From positions 1 through 64,000 of the forward strand of contig JBNKHE010000004.1 in the NCBI GenBank assembly GCA_050290185.1: a stretch of DNA of 64,000 nt, written 5' to 3'. The stretch comes from Pontiella sp. (GTDB taxonomy: Bacteria > Verrucomicrobiota > Kiritimatiellia > Kiritimatiellales > Pontiellaceae). This document shows positions 15,001 through 30,000 of this stretch, piece after piece. The position numbers were made by a program. The number at the start of each line of letters is the position of its first letter. Within the stretch, counting starts at the first letter, position 1.

Positions 15001-18000
15001 TCCGCACCCCGGCCAGTTGCAGTATCAGGATTCGTATCCATTCATTGATATCGCCCGGAATCCCGTCCATTCGGCAATGGCGTTCAAGGTTACGTAGATT
15101 GTCCGTCAACCCATCGAGACCGAATGGTCTGGACCCCATTCATAGCTGGCAATGTAGTGGCGCGGCAATCCATACGCAATGAGGATTCCGTCCAAAGATC
15201 CGCAGAGCCCCGTCATCCGCTATGTTGTTTTTTGACTGGTCTTTTCCCCTCCGGTTGGAAATCCTGCACACATGACCAAGACACAAAAAAGATTACCGGC
15301 CGAATGGGAACCGCAGGGTGCCATACTGCTGGCATGGCCCCACGACAAAACCGACTGGTCCCCGGTACTGGATGCGGCCCGTAAAACCTTCGATGACATC
15401 AGGAAGGCCATCGAGCGCTTTGAGCCGGTCATTCTCGTGCGACCCGATTCATATAACATACCCACCAACGATACCTGGGCACGCGATTTCGGACCCATCA
15501 CGATTGAGGAGGACGGCAACCCGGTCCTGCTTGATTTTATATTCAATGGCTGGGGCGGCAAGTTTCCCGCAGCACTGGACAATGCCATTACCCGCAACCT
15601 GCATACACTCGGCGCCTTTGGAACCACGCCCCTGCACAGCATCGATTTCATTCTCGAAGGCGGCAGCATTGAAAGCGACGGCGAAGGCACCCTGCTCACC
15701 ACAACCGAATGCCTGCTCAATTCAAACCGCAATCCGCATTGCACCAAGACACAGATTGAGGAAAAACTGAGGGTGGAGCTGGGCGTGCACACCATTCTGT
15801 GGCTGGAAAATGGAGCGCTGGCCGGCGACGATACCGACGCACATATCGATACCCTGGCCCGGCTTTGCCCGCACAAAACCATCGTTTATGTCGCCTGCGA
15901 CGATCCGTCGGACGAACATTACGAGAACCTCAAGGCCATGGAGCGTGAACTTACGGCATTCTCCGGCTACCGGTTGCTTCCCCTGCCCTGGCCCGCCGCC
16001 AAATACAACGCCGATGGCGAGCGTCTGCCGGCCACCTACGCCAACTATCTCGTCATCAACGGCGCCGTTCTGGTTCCGACCTACAACGATCCCGCAGATG
16101 AAACGGCTTTGCAAACCGTGCAAAAAGCGTTTCCCGGGCGCGAGATTATCGGCATAGATTGCAACACATTGATCCTGCAGCACGGTTCGCTGCATTGCGT
16201 AACCATGCAGATACCCAGAGGAGTGCTATGAGCAAACTAACAGTAGGTCTCGTTCAGCAGTCGTGCACCGACGACCGGAATGCCAACCTGGAAAAAAGCA
16301 TAGCCGGCATTCGCAGCTGCGCAAAAAAAGGCGCGCAACTGGTCGTACTTCAGGAGCTGCACACCAGCCTTTATTTCTGTGACCAGGAAGATCCTGCGCG
16401 GTTCGATCTCGCCGAAACGATTCCAGGCCCATCCACCGAAACCTTCGGTGCCCTGGCAAAGGAACTGAAAATTGTGATCGTCATATCACTCTTCGAAAAG
16501 CGTGCCCCCGGCGTCTACCATAACACCGCCGTCGTACTCGAATCGGACGGCTCCATCGCCGGAAAATACCGAAAGATGCATATTCCCGACGATCCGGGCT
16601 ACTATGAAAAATTTTACTTCACCCCCGGCGATCTGGGTTTTGAGCCGATCGAAACATCGGTCGGAAAACTGGGCGTGCTGGTCTGCTGGGACCAGTGGTA
16701 TCCCGAGGCCGCGCGCCTGATGGCCATGGCCGGAGCCGACCTGCTGATCTATCCCACCGCCATCGGCTGGGATCCAGCCGACACGCTGGATGAACAGAAG
16801 CGCCAGCGCGATGCATGGATCACCATCCAGCGCGCCCACGCGGTCGCCAACGGCATTTCCGTGCTCAGCGTTAACCGCGTCGGCATCGAACCCAGCGGAG
16901 CCGTATTCTGGGGCTCCAGCTTTGTCACCGGATGCCAGGGAGAAATCCTTGAACAGGCCGACACCACCATTGAAACCGAAGTGGTCGTCACACTGGACGC
17001 CGCCCGCAGCGAAACCGTCCGGCGCATTTGGCCCTTCCTGCGCGACCGCCGCATCGATGCGTATCAGGGGCTGACACAAAGACTGCTGGACTCATCCTCC
17101 AAGTGAGTCGGGTGTCCGGCATCGGCCAACCCACTAAATCCTACCTGCACTGCCGTTACCATCGGCGGGATCAGATGGAGAGGGCCTCTTTGCCTGAACC
17201 CGTCAGGAACCATCCTGATTTCAATGACAGATCCAGATTCATGACGATTTAGTTTAGTCTACCGCTTCGGATGGCGGTCTGTGTGTTCTTCCGCAATAGC
17301 ACAACAGATTTCCAATCCTGTGCAAGCAGTCGCAAACGCAGGTCAAATGAAACGATTCGGCGAATAGGGTTCCGGATCGATGTGCGGCGTGTGGCCCAGT
17401 ATCAGCTCGCTCAACAACAGGCCGGTAACCGGAGCCAGCGTCATCCCCAACATGTTGTGACCAGTCGCCAGATAGGCGTTTTCGAGATTGGGGACCTGCC
17501 CGACAATCGGAAGACTGTCCCAGGTCATCGGCCGCCATCCGTACCAGACCTCCGCATCGGCATCGGGAACGGGCTGCTCCACCAGATACGGCCTGGCCGA
17601 ATCCTGCAGTTGCTGGATTCGGACCGGCGGAATGGATTCGTCGAACCCGGCAAACTCCATCATGGAACCCAGCCGAATCCAATTTTCAAAGGGCGATACC
17701 CCCACCTTGTGTTCGGGAAACAGCATGGGATGTTTTGGACTTATGCCAGCCCGCTTCATCGTGATCGAGTAGCCCTTGCCCGGTTCCACCGGAATACGGC
17801 ATCCCAGAAATGGTTCCAATTTGGAACTCCAGGCACCGGTAGCAAACACAAACCGGTCCGCTTCGTAGACTCCGAGCGAGGTGTCGACTCCCGCAATGAT
17901 TCCATGCCGCCTGCGAATTCCGGTCAGCTCGCAGTGTTCGATAAATTCAACGTCCTGCTCCCGCAGCCGGTCCACCCAGGCCTGGTTGAGCAGGTCGGGC

Positions 18001-27000: not shown

Positions 27001-30000
27001 CTATTGCGAGTCGTGTTCGAGTTCCGGCCTGATCTTCTTCGAGCAGAAGCTCAACATGGCCTACCACGATTCGCGCTATGCCGATCTCTACGAGGAAACC
27101 CTCTACAACGCGCTGCTCGGCTCGCTGGATCTCGAAGCGGAAAACTTCTACTACCAGAATCCCCTGACGCAATCCAATGCGCGCTATCCGTGGCATGTGT
27201 GCCCCTGCTGTATCGGCAACATTCCGCGCGTCCTGCTGCGGCTGCCGACCTGGACCTACGTCAAGGATGCCGACGACCTGTACGTCAACATGTTCCTGGG
27301 AAGCCGCATCACCGTGCCGGGCATCGCGGGAACCGACGTGGAGATGGTGCAGAAGAGCGCGTATCCGTGGAGCGGCAAAGTAGCCATCACCCTCAACCCG
27401 ACCAGGACCAGCACCTTCGGCCTTCGCATCCGCGTGCCCAACCACGAGGTCAGCGAACTGTATACGGCGACCCCCAAGGCCAATGGCATTTTGTGGATCA
27501 AGCTCAACGGCAAAACGATCGAACCCAGGATTGAAAAGGGCTATGCCGTGATCGAGCGCACCTGGAAGAAAGGCGACAAGGTCGAGTTCGAACTGCCGAT
27601 GGAGATCCAGCGAATCCATGGCAGCGACAAGATCGCCGCCACCCGCGGCGAAGTGGCCCTGCGCCGCGGCCCGCTGATCTACACCTTCGAGTCCGCCGAC
27701 CAGAACCTGAACCAGACCCTTCCGGCTACTGCGGAATTAAAGTCGGTGTGGAAACCGAAAATGCTGAATGGCATCGTGGCCATCGAGGGTAAATGGGCCG
27801 ACGGCTCCGACCTGCTGGCGATCCCCTACTATGCCCGTTGCAACCGCCTCGGCGACAGCAAGGGCCATGGCGGTTTCGGTGGACCGGGCGCCGAAGGCGG
27901 TGGTGACGGAAACCGTTCCGGCGGCCCGGCATCCAAGGTATGGATCGAGGAAAAGTAATACCGATTACTGAGAGGTTTTGATGTTTTCTCCCATGCAGGC
28001 CTGCGTTGCGTATCGCAGCCGGCCCGGCTGCCCAGGGAGAATGTAATAACCAATCGATAAACGGTATACAACAATCTTCATTCCATCGGCTTCAGTGCAT
28101 TGATCTCGGCCTCCAGATCCGTCAGGCCTGCCAAAATCTCGTCAAAGGTCGGTCGCCGCCCAAAGATCATATCCTGCATCGCAGCATAATCCTTGCGCAT
28201 GGCCTCCAGAATCCGGACCGGAGGTATCAGCTTGAGCGTTCCAGGGCTCGCCAAATCATATTGAGCCCAACCTCGTGGATAAAAACGTTTCTTGAACTCC
28301 ACCACGCTTTTTAGCAGGGAACAATCCGCCAATGCCGCTGCCTTAACCTCCGACTGTGCCATTAAATACAGATCGTAATAATGTCGTGAATAGCGAGCCG
28401 GCATGGCCGACCCGTCCGGACGATGCACCTCGTGATGAAGAATCGTCGCCTTTTCCCAGAACGTACGGTGTGCATCAATCGCCCGGACCGGGCATTCCGA
28501 ATCCTCAAACTGATCCGGAAAATCTTCGGCGGCATACGGGCATACCGTATGATCCGAATGCGGAAGCCAGGACGCCAGCGGCCCGATCTCCAGTTGGATG
28601 TAGGGTAGCAGGTTTCCGGCATCCGATGTTTCCGGATAGCGCACCCGGACAATATGCCCCAAATCTTTTTCTCCCGCATTTACCGCGATTTTGCATTGAT
28701 CGCCCAAAACTTCATCCAGCATACGGAACAGGTCGCCGGCAATATATTCCCGCGCCAACTCGTTTATGCGATCATTCAACCTGCCCTGCTTGCTATTGGA
28801 ACGCTCGGCCATCGGATCTTCGTCCGTCACCGCCCGCCAATCCAGAACCAGGTCGATATCCTCGGAAAAGCGGTCGATCAGCCCGAACACCTTCGACAGA
28901 CTGGTGCCCCCCTTGAAGATCAGCAGCTTCGACAATTCAGCGTGTTCAAAAATGCGTTTCAACGTCCAGCAGACCCAGAAGTCCTTTTCGATAACCGCCA
29001 CCGAACCCAGGCCGCGGCGCTCCGCCGTTACGGTGAACAGTTCACTCCGCTGATTGGCAGACAACGCGGCGACCCGGTTCATGGATTAACCTCTTCCGCT
29101 ATGGTGCGGATGATTTCATGAACCCAGGCCGGTGCGGCCTTCGTATCCCGAACCATCTTCTTCCACAGGGAGGCCGGAACCGCACGGGAAAGCTTGTCGC
29201 GAATGTCCGAATCGATCCGGTCGCGGCCCAGCGACTTCAGCGCCTGAACAACCAGCTCGCTTTCACGATGCTTGAATCCCGACTCCTTCAACGCCCGTTT
29301 CTTGAAGATCAACGCCCGGCTTCCGATTTCATACGTCTTGGCCGGGCCGTCGGACAAATAAACGGCCTGCGCCGGAACCTGCGTCGAAAGCCCCAAAAGA
29401 TTCAGCGCCGTATTTTCCGAAGGCTGGATGCGCCATCCGGATTTACGCGCCAGCGCCTGTGCAACCTGATCAAGATCCGGCCCCATCTGCTGATTCAGGA
29501 GCGTACTGATCCGCGGATAATCATACAACCCGCGCAGGACACGCCGAATCGTTCCATTTTCCTCCAGACGCATCAAAGCCAAACGAATAGCACCATCGCT
29601 TCCATAATCGGAAAAATCAATTTTAGAAAACGACCAACCCCGACCGGAGGAGTATATTCTCTTAATAATCTTGTTTTGAATGGATTGCATAAATATCTAG
29701 TCGCATTATTTGTAACAAAATGCACTCATTATTTATTACAAAATTTTGCAATAAATCTACGGGCCGTACCACAGGGACCAAGACAGGATAATTGGACAAA
29801 ACACGCGAACCACCGCAGACGGTGTGAATGGTTAAGACAGAATGATTGAATGACAGAATGATTTTCTAATCAGGAATGGAATAATCCTGCCGGCCAATTG
29901 GTCGCACTTGCTTCGAATTGCGTGGTTCATCTCGGTTTTAGGTTAACACCAAGGAAAGGGGCCGGGACGCGCAGCGAGACGGCCGAACAGGCAGAAACGA

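Follow-up and report, generated by a model that had tools for sequence, protein, structure and literature searches.

Hydroxyproline catabolic genes beside GH146-like and GH127 beta-L-arabinofuranosidase genes in a Pontiella-like bacterium: a probable locus for arabinosylated cell-wall glycoproteins

Gene layout of the locus

The window considered here, a stretch of 64,000 nucleotides from a Pontiella-like bacterium, holds seven open reading frames between 17343 and 27958, each of them present where an earlier note on this DNA had placed it (Table 1). The regulator gene heads a minus-strand unit in which the start of the DAO gene overlaps the stop of the epimerase gene by 4 nt, and both glycosidase genes lie downstream of the aldehyde dehydrogenase gene on its strand, with gaps of 71 and 42 nt. 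In the 71-nt gap that separates the GH146 gene from the aldehyde dehydrogenase gene lies the palindrome CATGGGGCCCCATG, and a scan listed no terminator-like site there. The same junction is spanned without differences by contigs from three of four public DNA runs, while the bridging contig of the fourth differs in 6 letters; all four runs belong to one study, and this DNA may come from one of them. An artefact of one single assembly therefore does not explain the adjacency. Genes for a peptidase, a transporter or a GH121 arabinobiosidase are absent from the block itself, and no GH121 match above cut-off was found in the whole genome.

Table 1. Genes and sequence features of the locus
Feature	Position	Strand	Basis
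FAD-dependent DadA-like oxidoreductase, 421 aa	17343..18608	-	PF01266, E 1.8e-68
4-hydroxyproline 2-epimerase	18605..19600	-	NCBIfam equivalog NF052296
DHDPS-family protein	19549..20499	-	PF00701
GntR/FCD (FadR-subfamily) regulator, 288 aa	20530..21396	-	PF00392 + PF07729
22-bp palindrome TTGATATTGAGCGCAATATCAA, candidate operator of the GntR/FCD regulator	21430..21451	.	sequence read
Sigma-70-like promoter (TTGACA, 17 nt, GATATT) facing the regulator gene	21444..21472	-	consensus scan
Aldehyde dehydrogenase, 508 aa, candidate alpha-ketoglutarate-semialdehyde dehydrogenase	21516..23042	+	PF00171
GC-rich palindrome CATGGGGCCCCATG	23052..23065	+	sequence read
GH146-like beta-L-arabinofuranosidase, 699 aa	23114..25213	+	PF07944 + PF20736
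GH127 beta-L-arabinofuranosidase, 900 aa	25256..27958	+	PF07944 + PF20736 + PF20737

The hydroxyproline catabolic module

The hydroxyproline (Hyp) module is real and solid. The epimerase scores 462.9 bits against the '4-hydroxyproline epimerase' model (cut-off 450) and matches PDB 2azp (PA1268) with an E value of 5.8e-115, both catalytic cysteine motifs, MCGHGTIG and DRSPCGTGTS, being aligned; PMC4113996 refers to 2AZP as the structure of a 4HypE. The family alignments start at residue 23-24, and the true start of the enzyme is likely Met19, at 19546. The DadA-like oxidoreductase, a candidate cis-4-hydroxy-D-proline dehydrogenase, reaches 249 bits with the D-amino-acid dehydrogenase model NF001933, under its cut-off of 383. 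Among 80 metagenome loci fetched with the epimerase, 46 carry a DAO-family gene (23-62% identity to that of the window) on the epimerase contig, in most cases directly adjoining the epimerase gene.

The subfamily of the DHDPS-type protein is one found next to Hyp epimerases: a copy 63-73% identical to it adjoins the epimerase in 19 of these 80 loci, and 8 further loci have a DHDPS-family gene at 25-33%. Its matches to PDB 4mpq, 5czj and 2hmc (E about 1e-133) are all deposited as 'dihydrodipicolinate synthase'; we take 5czj to be the S. meliloti HypD deaminase. For the aldehyde dehydrogenase, the best NCBIfam models, 2,5-dioxovalerate dehydrogenase and GucD, score far under their cut-offs, and the PDB matches are 1eyy (E 1.3e-69) and 3v4c (E 8.6e-63); three congeners keep the protein, divergently placed as here, at 72-79% identity, and have the whole five-gene unit at 72-86%. 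DAAO, DHDPS and aldehyde dehydrogenase neighbours make up the 4HypE pathway signature as published in PMC4113996.

This genome has one Pro_racemase gene, and the earlier count of such genes in 5 of 52 Pontiella was reproduced for the other genomes of the genus (5/52, plus one marginal match). The glycyl-radical trans-4-hydroxy-L-proline dehydratase that had been reported is likewise present (NF043068, 1371.9 bits, cut-off 1100). The gene before it encodes a protein with a radical-SAM part (residues 187-481 of 482) that matches best the glycyl-radical-enzyme activases (TIGR02494, 320.2 bits versus 174.35) and reaches 307.8 with the Hyp-specific activase model NF043069, under the cut-off of 425. 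The genome also encodes AraA and cytochrome bd.

The two glycosidases

Both glycosidases, described in the earlier note as GH127, retain the Zn/Cys catalytic motifs; the family assignment holds for the 900-aa protein and has to be revised for the other. As judged by its structure matches, the 699-aa protein is GH146-like at the CAZy level: among solved structures it comes closest to BT0349 (5opj, E 3.8e-63) and Bll3HypBA1 (8k7x/8k7y), whereas the GH127 structures reach only E values of 1e-10 to 2e-27, so that GH127 was rejected as its family. By the same kind of comparison, the 900-aa protein is GH127 proper (6ex6, E 1.6e-93; HypBA1, 3wkw, E 1.9e-53). It carries a signal peptide together with an accessory N-terminal region some 270 aa long; its residues 128-263 align, at the level of a domain only, with positions 996-1140 of the HypBA2 model. 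In the alignment with HypBA1, E322, E338, C340 and the CC pair are kept, as are H142, Y145, H194 and R273. The four GH127 genes counted earlier correspond to four PF07944 genes in the genome.

Recurrence of the linkage

The link between the glycosidase and the Hyp genes is more than chance. Among 80 loci fetched with the GH146 protein (its orthogroup, 59-83% identity, six phyla), eight have a Pro_racemase gene within about 11 kb of the GH146 gene (G002, G004, G020, G021, G055, G061, G069 and G075; the GH146 proteins of G020 and G021 are identical). Random placement of the 64 Pro_racemase genes present in 52 of the 80 genomes would give 0.32 linked loci, the Poisson probability being 0.004 for at least three and 2e-9 for at least eight. 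The linked rows fall into three phylum-level clades, Pontiella, Planctomycetota and Flavobacteriaceae, and the starred branches in the tree of the orthogroup force at least four changes of the linkage label. The linked clades use two 4-Hyp epimerase subfamilies and two types of D-Hyp dehydrogenase: the Flavobacteriaceae epimerase is of the NF010578 type (605.6 bits, cut-off 376), and in the Planctomycetota locus a 374-aa DAO is found together with a Pyr_redox_2 protein. Since the Hyp partner enzymes are non-orthologous between the clades, we argue that these loci were assembled independently. In the family, the epimerase occurs in 6 of 54 genomes, the GH146 orthologue in 6 of 54 and both in 4 (Fisher one-sided p 7e-4, the kin genomes not being independent). 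The GH146-GH127 pair as such is found in nine of the 80 orthogroup loci, in four phyla, and a search centred on the epimerase returned a GH146-like gene in only 4 of 80 metagenome loci.

The related loci also supply the peptidases that are absent from the block of the window, namely Xaa-Pro aminopeptidase and DPP-IV, along with PutA. In Galbibacter (L055), a single strand carries genes for DHDPS, ALDH, epimerase, DAO, DPP-IV and a LamG-GH146 protein, followed by DUF885, an alpha-L-arabinofuranosidase-like protein, DUF5695, Xaa-Pro aminopeptidase and DPP-IV; in two Salegentibacter loci (L069, L075), SusC/SusD genes are inserted. In Pontiella L002 and G122, an M24 Xaa-Pro peptidase gene separates the Hyp module from the GH146-GH127 pair, accompanied by PutA in G122. 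Altogether, S9B, M24 or M2/M3-like peptidases occur in 14 of the 80 loci.

The regulator and its candidate operator

The GntR/FCD regulator (PF00392 at residues 85-145, PF07729 at 156-270) is 75-80% identical in three congeners and carries an extra N-terminal wHTH-like segment with a weak HTH_24/PhnF-like match at residues 4-56. The palindrome TTGATATTGAGCGCAATATCAA in the divergent promoter region beside it is kept in all four Pontiella modules, lying between the regulator and aldehyde dehydrogenase genes also in L002, L164 and L165, with 0-1 differences from a perfect palindrome. The promoter facing the regulator agrees with the consensus at 10 of 12 positions, as a consensus match only, and its predicted -10 box falls within the palindrome.

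The block had been read as one regulon, a reading that is not supported as it was worded. With up to 3 mismatches allowed, the palindrome is the sole such site in the 3.58-Mb genome, so that there is no second copy before the GH146 gene; in congener G124, where the glycosidase pair is unlinked, no copy was found in the 15.8-kb locus holding the pair (L005). Because the palindrome is single, membership of the glycosidases in the regulon would depend on presumed co-transcription by read-through from the aldehyde dehydrogenase gene. A precedent is provided by the HypR regulons of Alteromonadales, which, according to PMC5343134, already reach upstream to collagenases and proline peptidases.

A possible pathway from glycoprotein to 2-oxoglutarate

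Taken together, these data make it rather likely, as far as sequence comparison can tell, that the locus serves the utilisation of Hyp-O-arabinosylated cell-wall glycoproteins, that is, extensin-type HRGPs of plants and green algae. A functional link between beta-L-arabinofuranosidases and Hyp breakdown is supported by this comparison, to which the earlier note had no access, the GH146 orthogroup standing beside Hyp genes in three clades with non-orthologous epimerases and dehydrogenases; the substrate claim does not stand as written, Hyp-arabinosides being a substrate that we only infer. Cleavage of the Hyp-Ara bond has a counterpart within GH146, where XeHypBA1 and Bll4HypBA1 hydrolyse the Araf-beta1-Hyp bond (PMC10850190).

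The locus could then work as two modules. The two cysteine glycosidases would be exported, the GH127 enzyme trimming beta-1,2-linked L-arabinofuranose and the GH146 enzyme cleaving the final Araf-beta1-Hyp bond in the manner of XeHypBA1 and Bll4HypBA1; Hyp would be freed from the stripped peptides by proline-specific peptidases that the genome encodes elsewhere, a DPP-IV-like protein and an orthologue of Xaa-Pro aminopeptidase, and the L-arabinose would enter the AraA route, also encoded elsewhere. The other module would be a complete epimerase route of trans-4-hydroxy-L-proline, in which the epimerase would yield cis-4-D-Hyp, the DadA-like flavoenzyme would oxidise it to delta1-pyrroline-4-hydroxy-2-carboxylate, the DHDPS-type deaminase would form alpha-ketoglutarate semialdehyde and the aldehyde dehydrogenase 2-oxoglutarate, while the electrons of the flavoenzyme may pass to quinone and cytochrome bd. 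A HypR-like GntR/FCD repressor, with its presumed effector, would control this module by binding the 22-bp palindrome in the 119-bp divergent region, at a site overlapping the -10 box of its own promoter.

Alternative explanations

It seems unlikely, though it deserves attention, that the two gene sets are neighbours without a shared substrate, joined here by an inversion, the Hyp module serving free Hyp or peptides of any source and the GH146/GH127 pair removing beta-L-arabinofuranose caps from pectic arabinan, RG-II or arabinogalactan side chains. The window shows the L002 gene order after inversion of the segment that runs from the aldehyde dehydrogenase to the DAO gene and loss of the M24 gene and of the LamG-coding part. 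Hyp genes are absent within 10 kb from 72 of the 80 orthogroup loci, in G124 the Hyp module and the pair lie on separate contigs, and the candidate operator is single. The substrates of the closest solved relatives, moreover, are arabinan or AGP (PMC10850190); BT0349, the closest to the GH146-like protein, acts on arabinan-derived beta-Araf and not on Hyp, which counts against a Hyp substrate. Against this, the glycosidases adjoined the Hyp module before the inversion (L002, G122) and still do so after it, the linkage is seen again in three phyla whose Hyp enzymes are not orthologous, where 0.32 cases would be expected by chance, and proline-specific peptidases and PutA, for which use on pectin or arabinan would have no need, lie between or beside both sets in relatives.

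It is very unlikely that the GH146 gene is a decaying remnant cut by the rearrangement and that the block thus no longer works as a glycoprotein locus. The protein is a short form that has lost the N-terminal LamG region of most orthologues (about 370 aa; median orthologue ORF 1022 aa), and in phmmer alignments the canonical GH146 acid/base Glu falls on Arg398. However, residue 398 is non-Glu throughout the orthogroup (Arg in 60, Lys in 13 and Ser in 4 of 77 rows), and the nearby Glu404, present in 76 of 77 rows, may take the place of the canonical residue. All 77 rows share the Zn ligands E425, C427, C495 and C496, the frame is intact, the N-terminus resembles a signal peptide (judged by reading, with no tool), and a GGAAG ribosome-binding site lies 8 nt upstream of the ATG. 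The same short form is kept in another species, the closest relative (L001/G121, 83-86% identical), where ffh, trmD and other housekeeping genes lie upstream; no true Pro_racemase was found in G121, a genome 83% complete, and this counts against the reading of the block as a Hyp-glycoprotein locus.

Hyp breakdown and the non-phosphorylative arabinose route both end in alpha-ketoglutarate semialdehyde, via DHDPS-family and aldehyde dehydrogenase enzymes, and in Flagellimonas (L073) the GH146 gene is adjoined only by DHDPS and ALDH genes, with the epimerase elsewhere; yet the idea that the two enzymes of the window act as L-2-keto-3-deoxyarabonate dehydratase and alpha-ketoglutarate-semialdehyde dehydrogenase, tied to the arabinofuranosidases through arabinose and not Hyp, is very unlikely, given the Hyp-epimerase neighbourhood of this DHDPS subfamily (19 of 80 metagenome loci, 63-73% identity), the tight minus-strand unit that the DHDPS gene shares with the epimerase and DAO genes, a block without arabinose dehydrogenase, lactonase or arabonate dehydratase, and an AraA that provides the isomerase route.

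The pairing of Hyp catabolism with arabinosidases in three bacterial phyla suggests a so far undescribed mode of feeding on the cell-wall glycoproteins of plants and algae.

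The block and its hydroxyproline module

The seven genes that the earlier note had read as one regulon for hydroxyproline (Hyp) arabinosides are all present in the window, with unchanged coordinates (see the table). On the plus strand, the genes are separated by gaps of 71 nt (aldehyde dehydrogenase to GH146) and 42 nt (GH146 to GH127), and the regulator/aldehyde dehydrogenase, aldehyde dehydrogenase/GH146 and GH146/GH127 junctions are spanned by contigs of four DNA runs, all from one study, one of which may itself be the source. In the public run X4, one contig matches the window from position 23009 on and is preceded by 255 letters that do not match; it may come from a related strain in which the region ahead of GH146 is different or has diverged. 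The block is bordered upstream by genes for an agmatine deiminase-like and an N-carbamoylputrescine amidase-like protein, both below their equivalog cut-offs, and downstream by a convergent AbiEii/DUF6088 pair. A ThiF-family gene, weakly matching the anti-phage 6A-MBL cap2_3 model, and one for a WYL/WCX protein lie just downstream; with the pair, they give the impression of a small defence island that separates blocks of CAZymes. Further along the window are F5/8-type-C proteins, an alginate-lyase-like domain, two GH29 fucosidases and a GH97.

Features of the block, its surroundings and the related loci (positions refer to the window unless a locus or contig is named)
Feature	Position	Strand	Remark
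Agmatine deiminase-like and N-carbamoylputrescine amidase-like	15272-17106	+	directly upstream of Hyp module
DadA-like FAD oxidoreductase	17343-18608	-	start overlaps epimerase stop by 4 nt
Pro_racemase-family protein (4-Hyp epimerase)	18605-19600	-
DHDPS-family protein	19549-20499	-	PF00701
GntR/FCD regulator	20530-21396	-	tightly packed minus-strand unit
22-bp palindrome	21430-21451		divergent spacer
Aldehyde dehydrogenase	21516-23042	+	after 119-bp divergent spacer
GC-rich palindrome	23052-23065		aldehyde dehydrogenase-GH146 spacer
699-aa PF07944 protein (GH146-like)	23114-25213	+
Acid/base region of GH146 protein	24305-24331		residues 398-406
900-aa PF07944 protein (GH127)	25256-27958	+
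AbiEii toxin and DUF6088 partner	28078-29690	-
ThiF-family protein	33881-35668	-
WYL/WCX protein	36433-37482	-
F5/8-type-C, alginate-lyase-like, GH29 and GH97 genes	39537-45102, 51433-56759, 60903-63998
GH97 and alginate-lyase-like copies	42187-45102, 60903-63998
Glycyl-radical Hyp dehydratase with activase-like gene	G000:C1:122830-126615 (L161:49-3834)		this genome
Regulator-PutA-M24	L165 (G122:C41) 13224-19461		other Pontiella genome
1080-aa M12-type protein	L162 (G106:C308) 4077-7319		other Pontiella genome
DUF885 and DUF5695	L055 12027-13721 and 16099-18825		Galbibacter
Other DUF5695/DUF885 loci	L061, L069, L073, L075, L059, L060, L079, L032, L013, L050, L070

The epimerase passes the cut-off of the NCBIfam equivalog model for 4-hydroxyproline epimerase (NF052296; 462.9 bits, cut-off 450) and its alignment with PA1268/2AZP spans 309 residues (E 5.8e-115), in which motifs of 2AZP match the MCGHGTIG and DRSPCGTGTS motifs that hold the catalytic Cys/Cys pair. 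In this superfamily, such a pair, with one Cys on each of two opposite faces, distinguishes 4-Hyp 2-epimerases from members with Cys/Thr or Ser/Thr. In the accessible part of PMC4113996, 2AZP is cited as a structure of 4HypE, the Cys/Cys pair is described as that used by the previously characterised racemases and epimerases, and the 4HypE pathway is marked by neighbouring DAAO, DHDPS and aldehyde dehydrogenase genes; genes of all three kinds adjoin the epimerase of the window. Since the family alignments start at residue 23-24, Met19 at position 19546, two bases past the DHDPS stop, is the likelier start of this protein.

The DHDPS-type protein matches the PDB entries 4mpq, 5czj and 2hmc (E about 1e-133), all deposited as "dihydrodipicolinate synthase"; we take 5czj to be HypD, the Pyr4H2C deaminase of S. 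meliloti. In the 80 metagenome loci fetched with the epimerase, a copy 63-73% identical to the window's protein adjoins the epimerase in 19, and a further 8 contain a DHDPS-family gene at 25-33% identity. Judged by sequence, the protein has the DHDPS fold and belongs to a subfamily that travels with 4-Hyp epimerases. The alternative, by which the DHDPS-type protein and the aldehyde dehydrogenase serve the non-phosphorylative (Weimberg-type) route of L-arabinose, is given a low probability here; the genome encodes a single AraA. In the Hyp route, the flavoenzyme and the aldehyde dehydrogenase are candidates for their steps on the strength of family-level matches and context, and the genome encodes subunit I of cytochrome bd, a possible quinol outlet for the electrons of the flavoenzyme. 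The whole five-gene Hyp unit recurs, with identical divergent layout and 72-86% identity, in three other Pontiella genomes.

The genome also contains a glycyl-radical trans-4-hydroxy-L-proline dehydratase (NF043068) preceded by an activase-like gene, so that the organism has two routes for Hyp. The activase-like protein scores above the cut-off of TIGR02494 and below that of the Hyp-specific activase model NF043069; the listed ORF, at 482 aa, is longer than usual, and its radical-SAM match begins at residue 187.

Regulation

The divergent spacer between the regulator and aldehyde dehydrogenase genes holds the 22-bp palindrome TTGATATTGAGCGCAATATCAA, which is found with 0-1 differences from perfect in the equivalent spacer of all three congener modules, that is, in 4/4 Pontiella Hyp modules, and the other spacer sequence diverges. 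No extra copy with up to three mismatches was found elsewhere in the genome, nor in the 165 fetched loci beyond the four GntR-aldehyde dehydrogenase spacers. A sigma-70-like site faces the regulator gene, and its -10 box overlaps with the palindrome, which lies in the predicted promoter region of a GntR-type (wHTH plus FCD) regulator that is encoded beside, and divergently from, the hyp genes. HypR proteins of the GntR/FadR type are the regulators of hyp genes in S. meliloti and further Proteobacteria as well as in S. coelicolor; a conserved single palindrome over the -10 box fits a repressor that, by analogy with HypR of S. meliloti and S. coelicolor, would be autoregulated, with the palindrome as a candidate operator from which Hyp or a metabolite would release it. 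The regulator carries an extra N-terminal wHTH-like segment (residues 4-56, with weak PhnF/HTH_24 matches) before its GntR domain (85-145), and this long form is kept in the three congeners at 75-80% identity. The site scan listed no terminator-like site between the aldehyde dehydrogenase and GH146 genes, but their spacer contains a GC-rich palindrome, so that co-transcription of the glycosidases with the aldehyde dehydrogenase is something that we infer.

The two glycosidases

While the gene block of the earlier note is confirmed, its description of both large glycosidases as GH127 enzymes has to be amended. Among solved structures, the closest relatives of the 699-aa protein are BT0349 (5opj, E 3.8e-63) and Bll3HypBA1 (8k7y, E 6.2e-47), with GH127 chains at 2.3e-27 or weaker; by these matches, the protein is GH146-like and not a GH127. 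In the alignment of its orthogroup, i.e., its relatives in 80 fetched loci (see below), the Zn ligands E425, C427, C495 and C496 do not vary in any row (77/77). In a phmmer alignment, the acid/base Glu of GH146 enzymes (E694 of Bll3HypBA1) pairs with Arg398. Throughout the orthogroup, Arg or Lys occupies this position and is followed, six residues on, by a conserved N-x-E-C-F motif, the Glu of which (Glu404; 76/77 rows) could be the equivalent of the canonical residue, so that the catalytic residue of this group may be shifted.

The 900-aa protein belongs to GH127, the family of HypBA1-type cysteine beta-L-arabinofuranosidases: compared with B. longum HypBA1 (3wkw), it keeps the acid/base and Zn-site residues E322, E338, C340 and the CC pair, and the sugar-binding residues H142, Y145, H194 and R273, as listed in the accessible text of PMC10850190, align with identical residues. 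Its N-terminus is extended by about 270 aa, and a portion of this extension aligns with a stretch of the HypBA2 model that is not catalytic. The search of the whole genome for a GH121 beta-L-arabinobiosidase (HypBA2, NF041578) returned a single 30.9-bit domain match, inside this GH127 gene, against a cut-off of 3200. On reading by eye, and not by a prediction tool, the N-termini of both glycosidases appear signal-peptide-like.

According to the accessible text of PMC10850190, XeHypBA1 and Bll4HypBA1, both of family GH146, cut the Araf-beta1-Hyp bond. Cleavage of this bond, the main activity of XeHypBA1, is the reaction proposed for the 699-aa protein, a candidate specificity that is drawn from the genomic context.

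Linkage of the GH146 orthogroup with hydroxyproline genes

The 80 loci fetched with the GH146 protein from one-genome-per-species contigs (59-83% identity) come from Kiritimatiellota, Planctomycetota, Verrucomicrobiota, Acidobacteriota and Bacteroidota, with a few records of Actinomycetota. Most members are about 1020 aa long, with an N-terminal LamG domain that the GH146 protein of the window does not have; its closest relative, also of the short form (L001 of genome G121), sits after ffh and trmD. Pro_racemase genes above cut-off occur in 52 of the 80 genomes (64 genes), and in eight of these (G002, G004, G020, G021, G055, G061, G069 and G075, the GH146 proteins of G020 and G021 being identical) one lies within about 11 kb of GH146. 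Random placement of 64 genes, calculated from genome sizes and counts, would yield 0.32 linked cases. Against a link counts that in 72/80 loci no Hyp gene was found within 10 kb, as do the ffh-trmD context of L001, the counts within the family and around the epimerase given below, and the inverted layout of the window's Hyp module.

The GH146 tree (FastTree, with SH-like supports only) follows the phyla; the linked rows fall into three clades, and the starred branches force at least four label changes. The Flavobacteriaceae have an epimerase of NF010578 type (605.6 bits, with the cut-off at 376). For the epimerase of the Planctomycetota the nearest model is NF010577, whose cut-off of 442 it narrowly misses (417.7 bits); a 374-aa DAO and a separate Pyr_redox_2 protein follow it, a layout like that of LhpB/LhpF in P. 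aeruginosa (PMC6608401). That the partner enzymes differ by clade argues for independent assembly and not for the transfer of one locus. Within the family of the window's genome, the epimerase was found in 6/54 genomes and the GH146 orthologue also in 6/54; both occur in four, adjacent in three and on different contigs in G124, where no palindrome was found near the glycosidase pair. From the side of the epimerase, only 4/80 metagenome loci (L106, L136, L150, L158), many of these epimerase-centred contigs being short, contain a GH146-like gene, at 26-35% identity. Two further GH146-like genes of this genome are on contig C8.

Gene content of the related loci

In Galbibacter (L055), a single strand downstream of an AraC regulator encodes DHDPS, aldehyde dehydrogenase, epimerase, DAO, DPP-IV, LamG-GH146, DUF885, an alpha-L-arabinofuranosidase-like protein, DUF5695, an Xaa-Pro aminopeptidase and a second DPP-IV; in Salegentibacter (L069, L075), SusC/SusD are inserted between the DAO and DPP-IV genes. 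In the Pontiella locus L002, an M24 Xaa-Pro peptidase gene stands between the DAO gene and LamG-GH146, followed by GH127. In G122, also a Pontiella, the GH146-GH127 pair (in L004) comes after a second GntR/FCD regulator, PutA and an M24 peptidase; this stretch is a proline-peptide and arabinosidase unit with its own regulator. Compared with L002 and G122, the window has the Hyp module inverted as a block and is missing the M24 gene and the LamG-coding part; an M24 gene, 68.5% identical, is on contig C2 of this genome, which also has a DPP-IV-like gene.

The survey of recurrent neighbours covered 325 ORFs (up to three genes on each side of GH146, at least 150 aa) from 78/80 loci, L025 and L072 having no GH146 ORF called, and gave 249 clusters, with recurrent families counted by BLAST. 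The 98 of the 249 cluster representatives that were scanned with Pfam are mostly unrelated housekeeping genes. S9B, M24 or M2/M3-like peptidases occur in 14/80 loci, DUF5695 in 12/80, and a 900-aa-type GH127 gene in 9/80, from four phyla; these GH127 neighbours are 55-79% identical in seven loci, and L020/L021 have a 36% homologue. Extensin-type structures consist of Ser-Hyp4 repeats with Ara4 chains that bear an alpha-1,3 cap (PMC7263609), and the proline-specific peptidases, PutA and the alpha-arabinofuranosidase fit such a substrate, whereas the use of pectin or arabinan would not call for them.

DUF5695 (about 900 aa) and DUF885 (5/80 loci) stand beside LamG-GH146 mostly in polysaccharide utilization loci (PULs) of Flavobacteriaceae and are candidate enzymes acting on hydroxyproline-rich glycoproteins (HRGPs); the literature search on DUF5695 found nothing related. 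Another Pontiella genome has a possible HRGP protease, encoded next to a Hyp cluster (DAO plus Pyr_redox_2 type) under an AraC regulator: this protein of 1080 aa combines an M12-type metallopeptidase domain with Big_9 and two LamG domains. A link with GH97 and alginate-lyase-like genes, which flank GH146 in six Planctomycetota loci, was discarded: the copies in the window are only about 30% identical to those of the Planctomycetota and, hence, are not orthologues.

Comparison with known systems

The nearest counterpart on the sugar side is the system of B. longum for beta-arabinooligosaccharides of HRGPs, with a cluster (BLLJ_0208-0213) of HypAA (GH43), HypBA2 (GH121), HypBA1 (GH127) and an ABC importer, the GH146 enzyme Bll4HypBA1 being encoded separately. 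Both have GH127 and GH146 cysteine beta-L-arabinofuranosidases, those of B. longum acting on Hyp-linked arabinosides. However, the B. longum system takes the sugar only, importing beta-Ara2 without Hyp catabolism, whereas the block in the window joins the glycosidases to a route from Hyp to 2-oxoglutarate and lacks an importer, and a GH121 above cut-off is absent from window and genome alike. Xanthomonas euvesicatoria has XeHypBA1 (XCV2724, GH146), XeHypBA2 (GH121) and XeHypAA (GH43), and the text of the Xanthomonas paper contains no mention of epimerase, dehydrogenase or catabolism.

On the amino acid side, the module resembles the HypR-controlled clusters, such as hypR/hypRE/hypO/hypD/hypH of S. 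meliloti, in its GntR/FadR-type regulator (autoregulated in those clusters), its epimerase and its candidates for the D-Hyp dehydrogenase, the DHDPS-type deaminase and the semialdehyde dehydrogenase. As far as the accessible part of PMC5343134 goes, the known HypR regulons carry transporters and, in Alteromonadales, also collagenases and proline peptidases, with no glycoside hydrolase reported; in contrast, the block in the window has two glycosidases beside the Hyp module and no Hyp transporter, and its regulator has the additional wHTH-like segment.

GH127 genes in anaerobic aquatic "Latescibacteria" have been read in silico as a tool against algal extensin arabinosides (PMC4454575); the accessible text of that proposal is a genome-wide inventory that mentions no gene linkage or Hyp catabolic route, its one occurrence of "epimerase" concerning sialic acid. 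In the accessible part of the study that surveyed gene neighbourhoods across the proline racemase superfamily, "glycos", "arabino" and "DUF1680" do not occur. The literature search, the scope of which excluded supplements that might list such neighbours, found no report of beta-L-arabinofuranosidase genes linked to Hyp catabolism, and nothing that pairs Pontiella with hydroxyproline or GH146 with hydroxyproline and a peptidase.

Implications

In the walls of plants and green algae, HRGPs are a component rich in nitrogen, and, to our knowledge, their microbial turnover is poorly mapped. The known bacterial systems (Bifidobacterium, Xanthomonas) handle the arabinose chains only, and the known Hyp regulons begin from collagen or free Hyp. 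We consider it reasonably probable that the block is a locus for Hyp-O-arabinosylated glycoproteins, in which a Hyp module of the HypR type would have become joined with the pair of GH146 and GH127 genes.

The more interesting lead is the wider pattern, in which Hyp catabolism and proline peptidases have repeatedly come together around the conserved LamG-GH146 orthogroup, with full PULs of flavobacteria among the cases. More tentatively, and with somewhat less than even confidence, this orthogroup can be envisaged as a dedicated Hyp-O-beta-L-arabinofuranoside hydrolase that marks widespread extensin/HRGP loci taking sugar, peptide and hydroxyproline together. Such a class of HRGP loci would have gone unrecognised so far; the marine Flavobacteriaceae loci would be full PULs with SusC/D, DPP-IV, aminopeptidase P and alpha-L-arabinofuranosidase, and the place of the absent GH121 arabinobiosidase may be taken by DUF5695 and DUF885, two families of unknown function.

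The combination of enzymes for the Hyp-Ara bond with Hyp catabolism and proline peptidases would be a marker by which HRGP degradation could be recognised in genomes from sediments, soils and the sea, the very conserved GH146 subfamily would gain a testable substrate, and cultivable organisms, such as isolates of Salegentibacter and Galbibacter, would be at hand for the tests. The organism itself is a bacterium with both the glycyl-radical and the epimerase route of Hyp.
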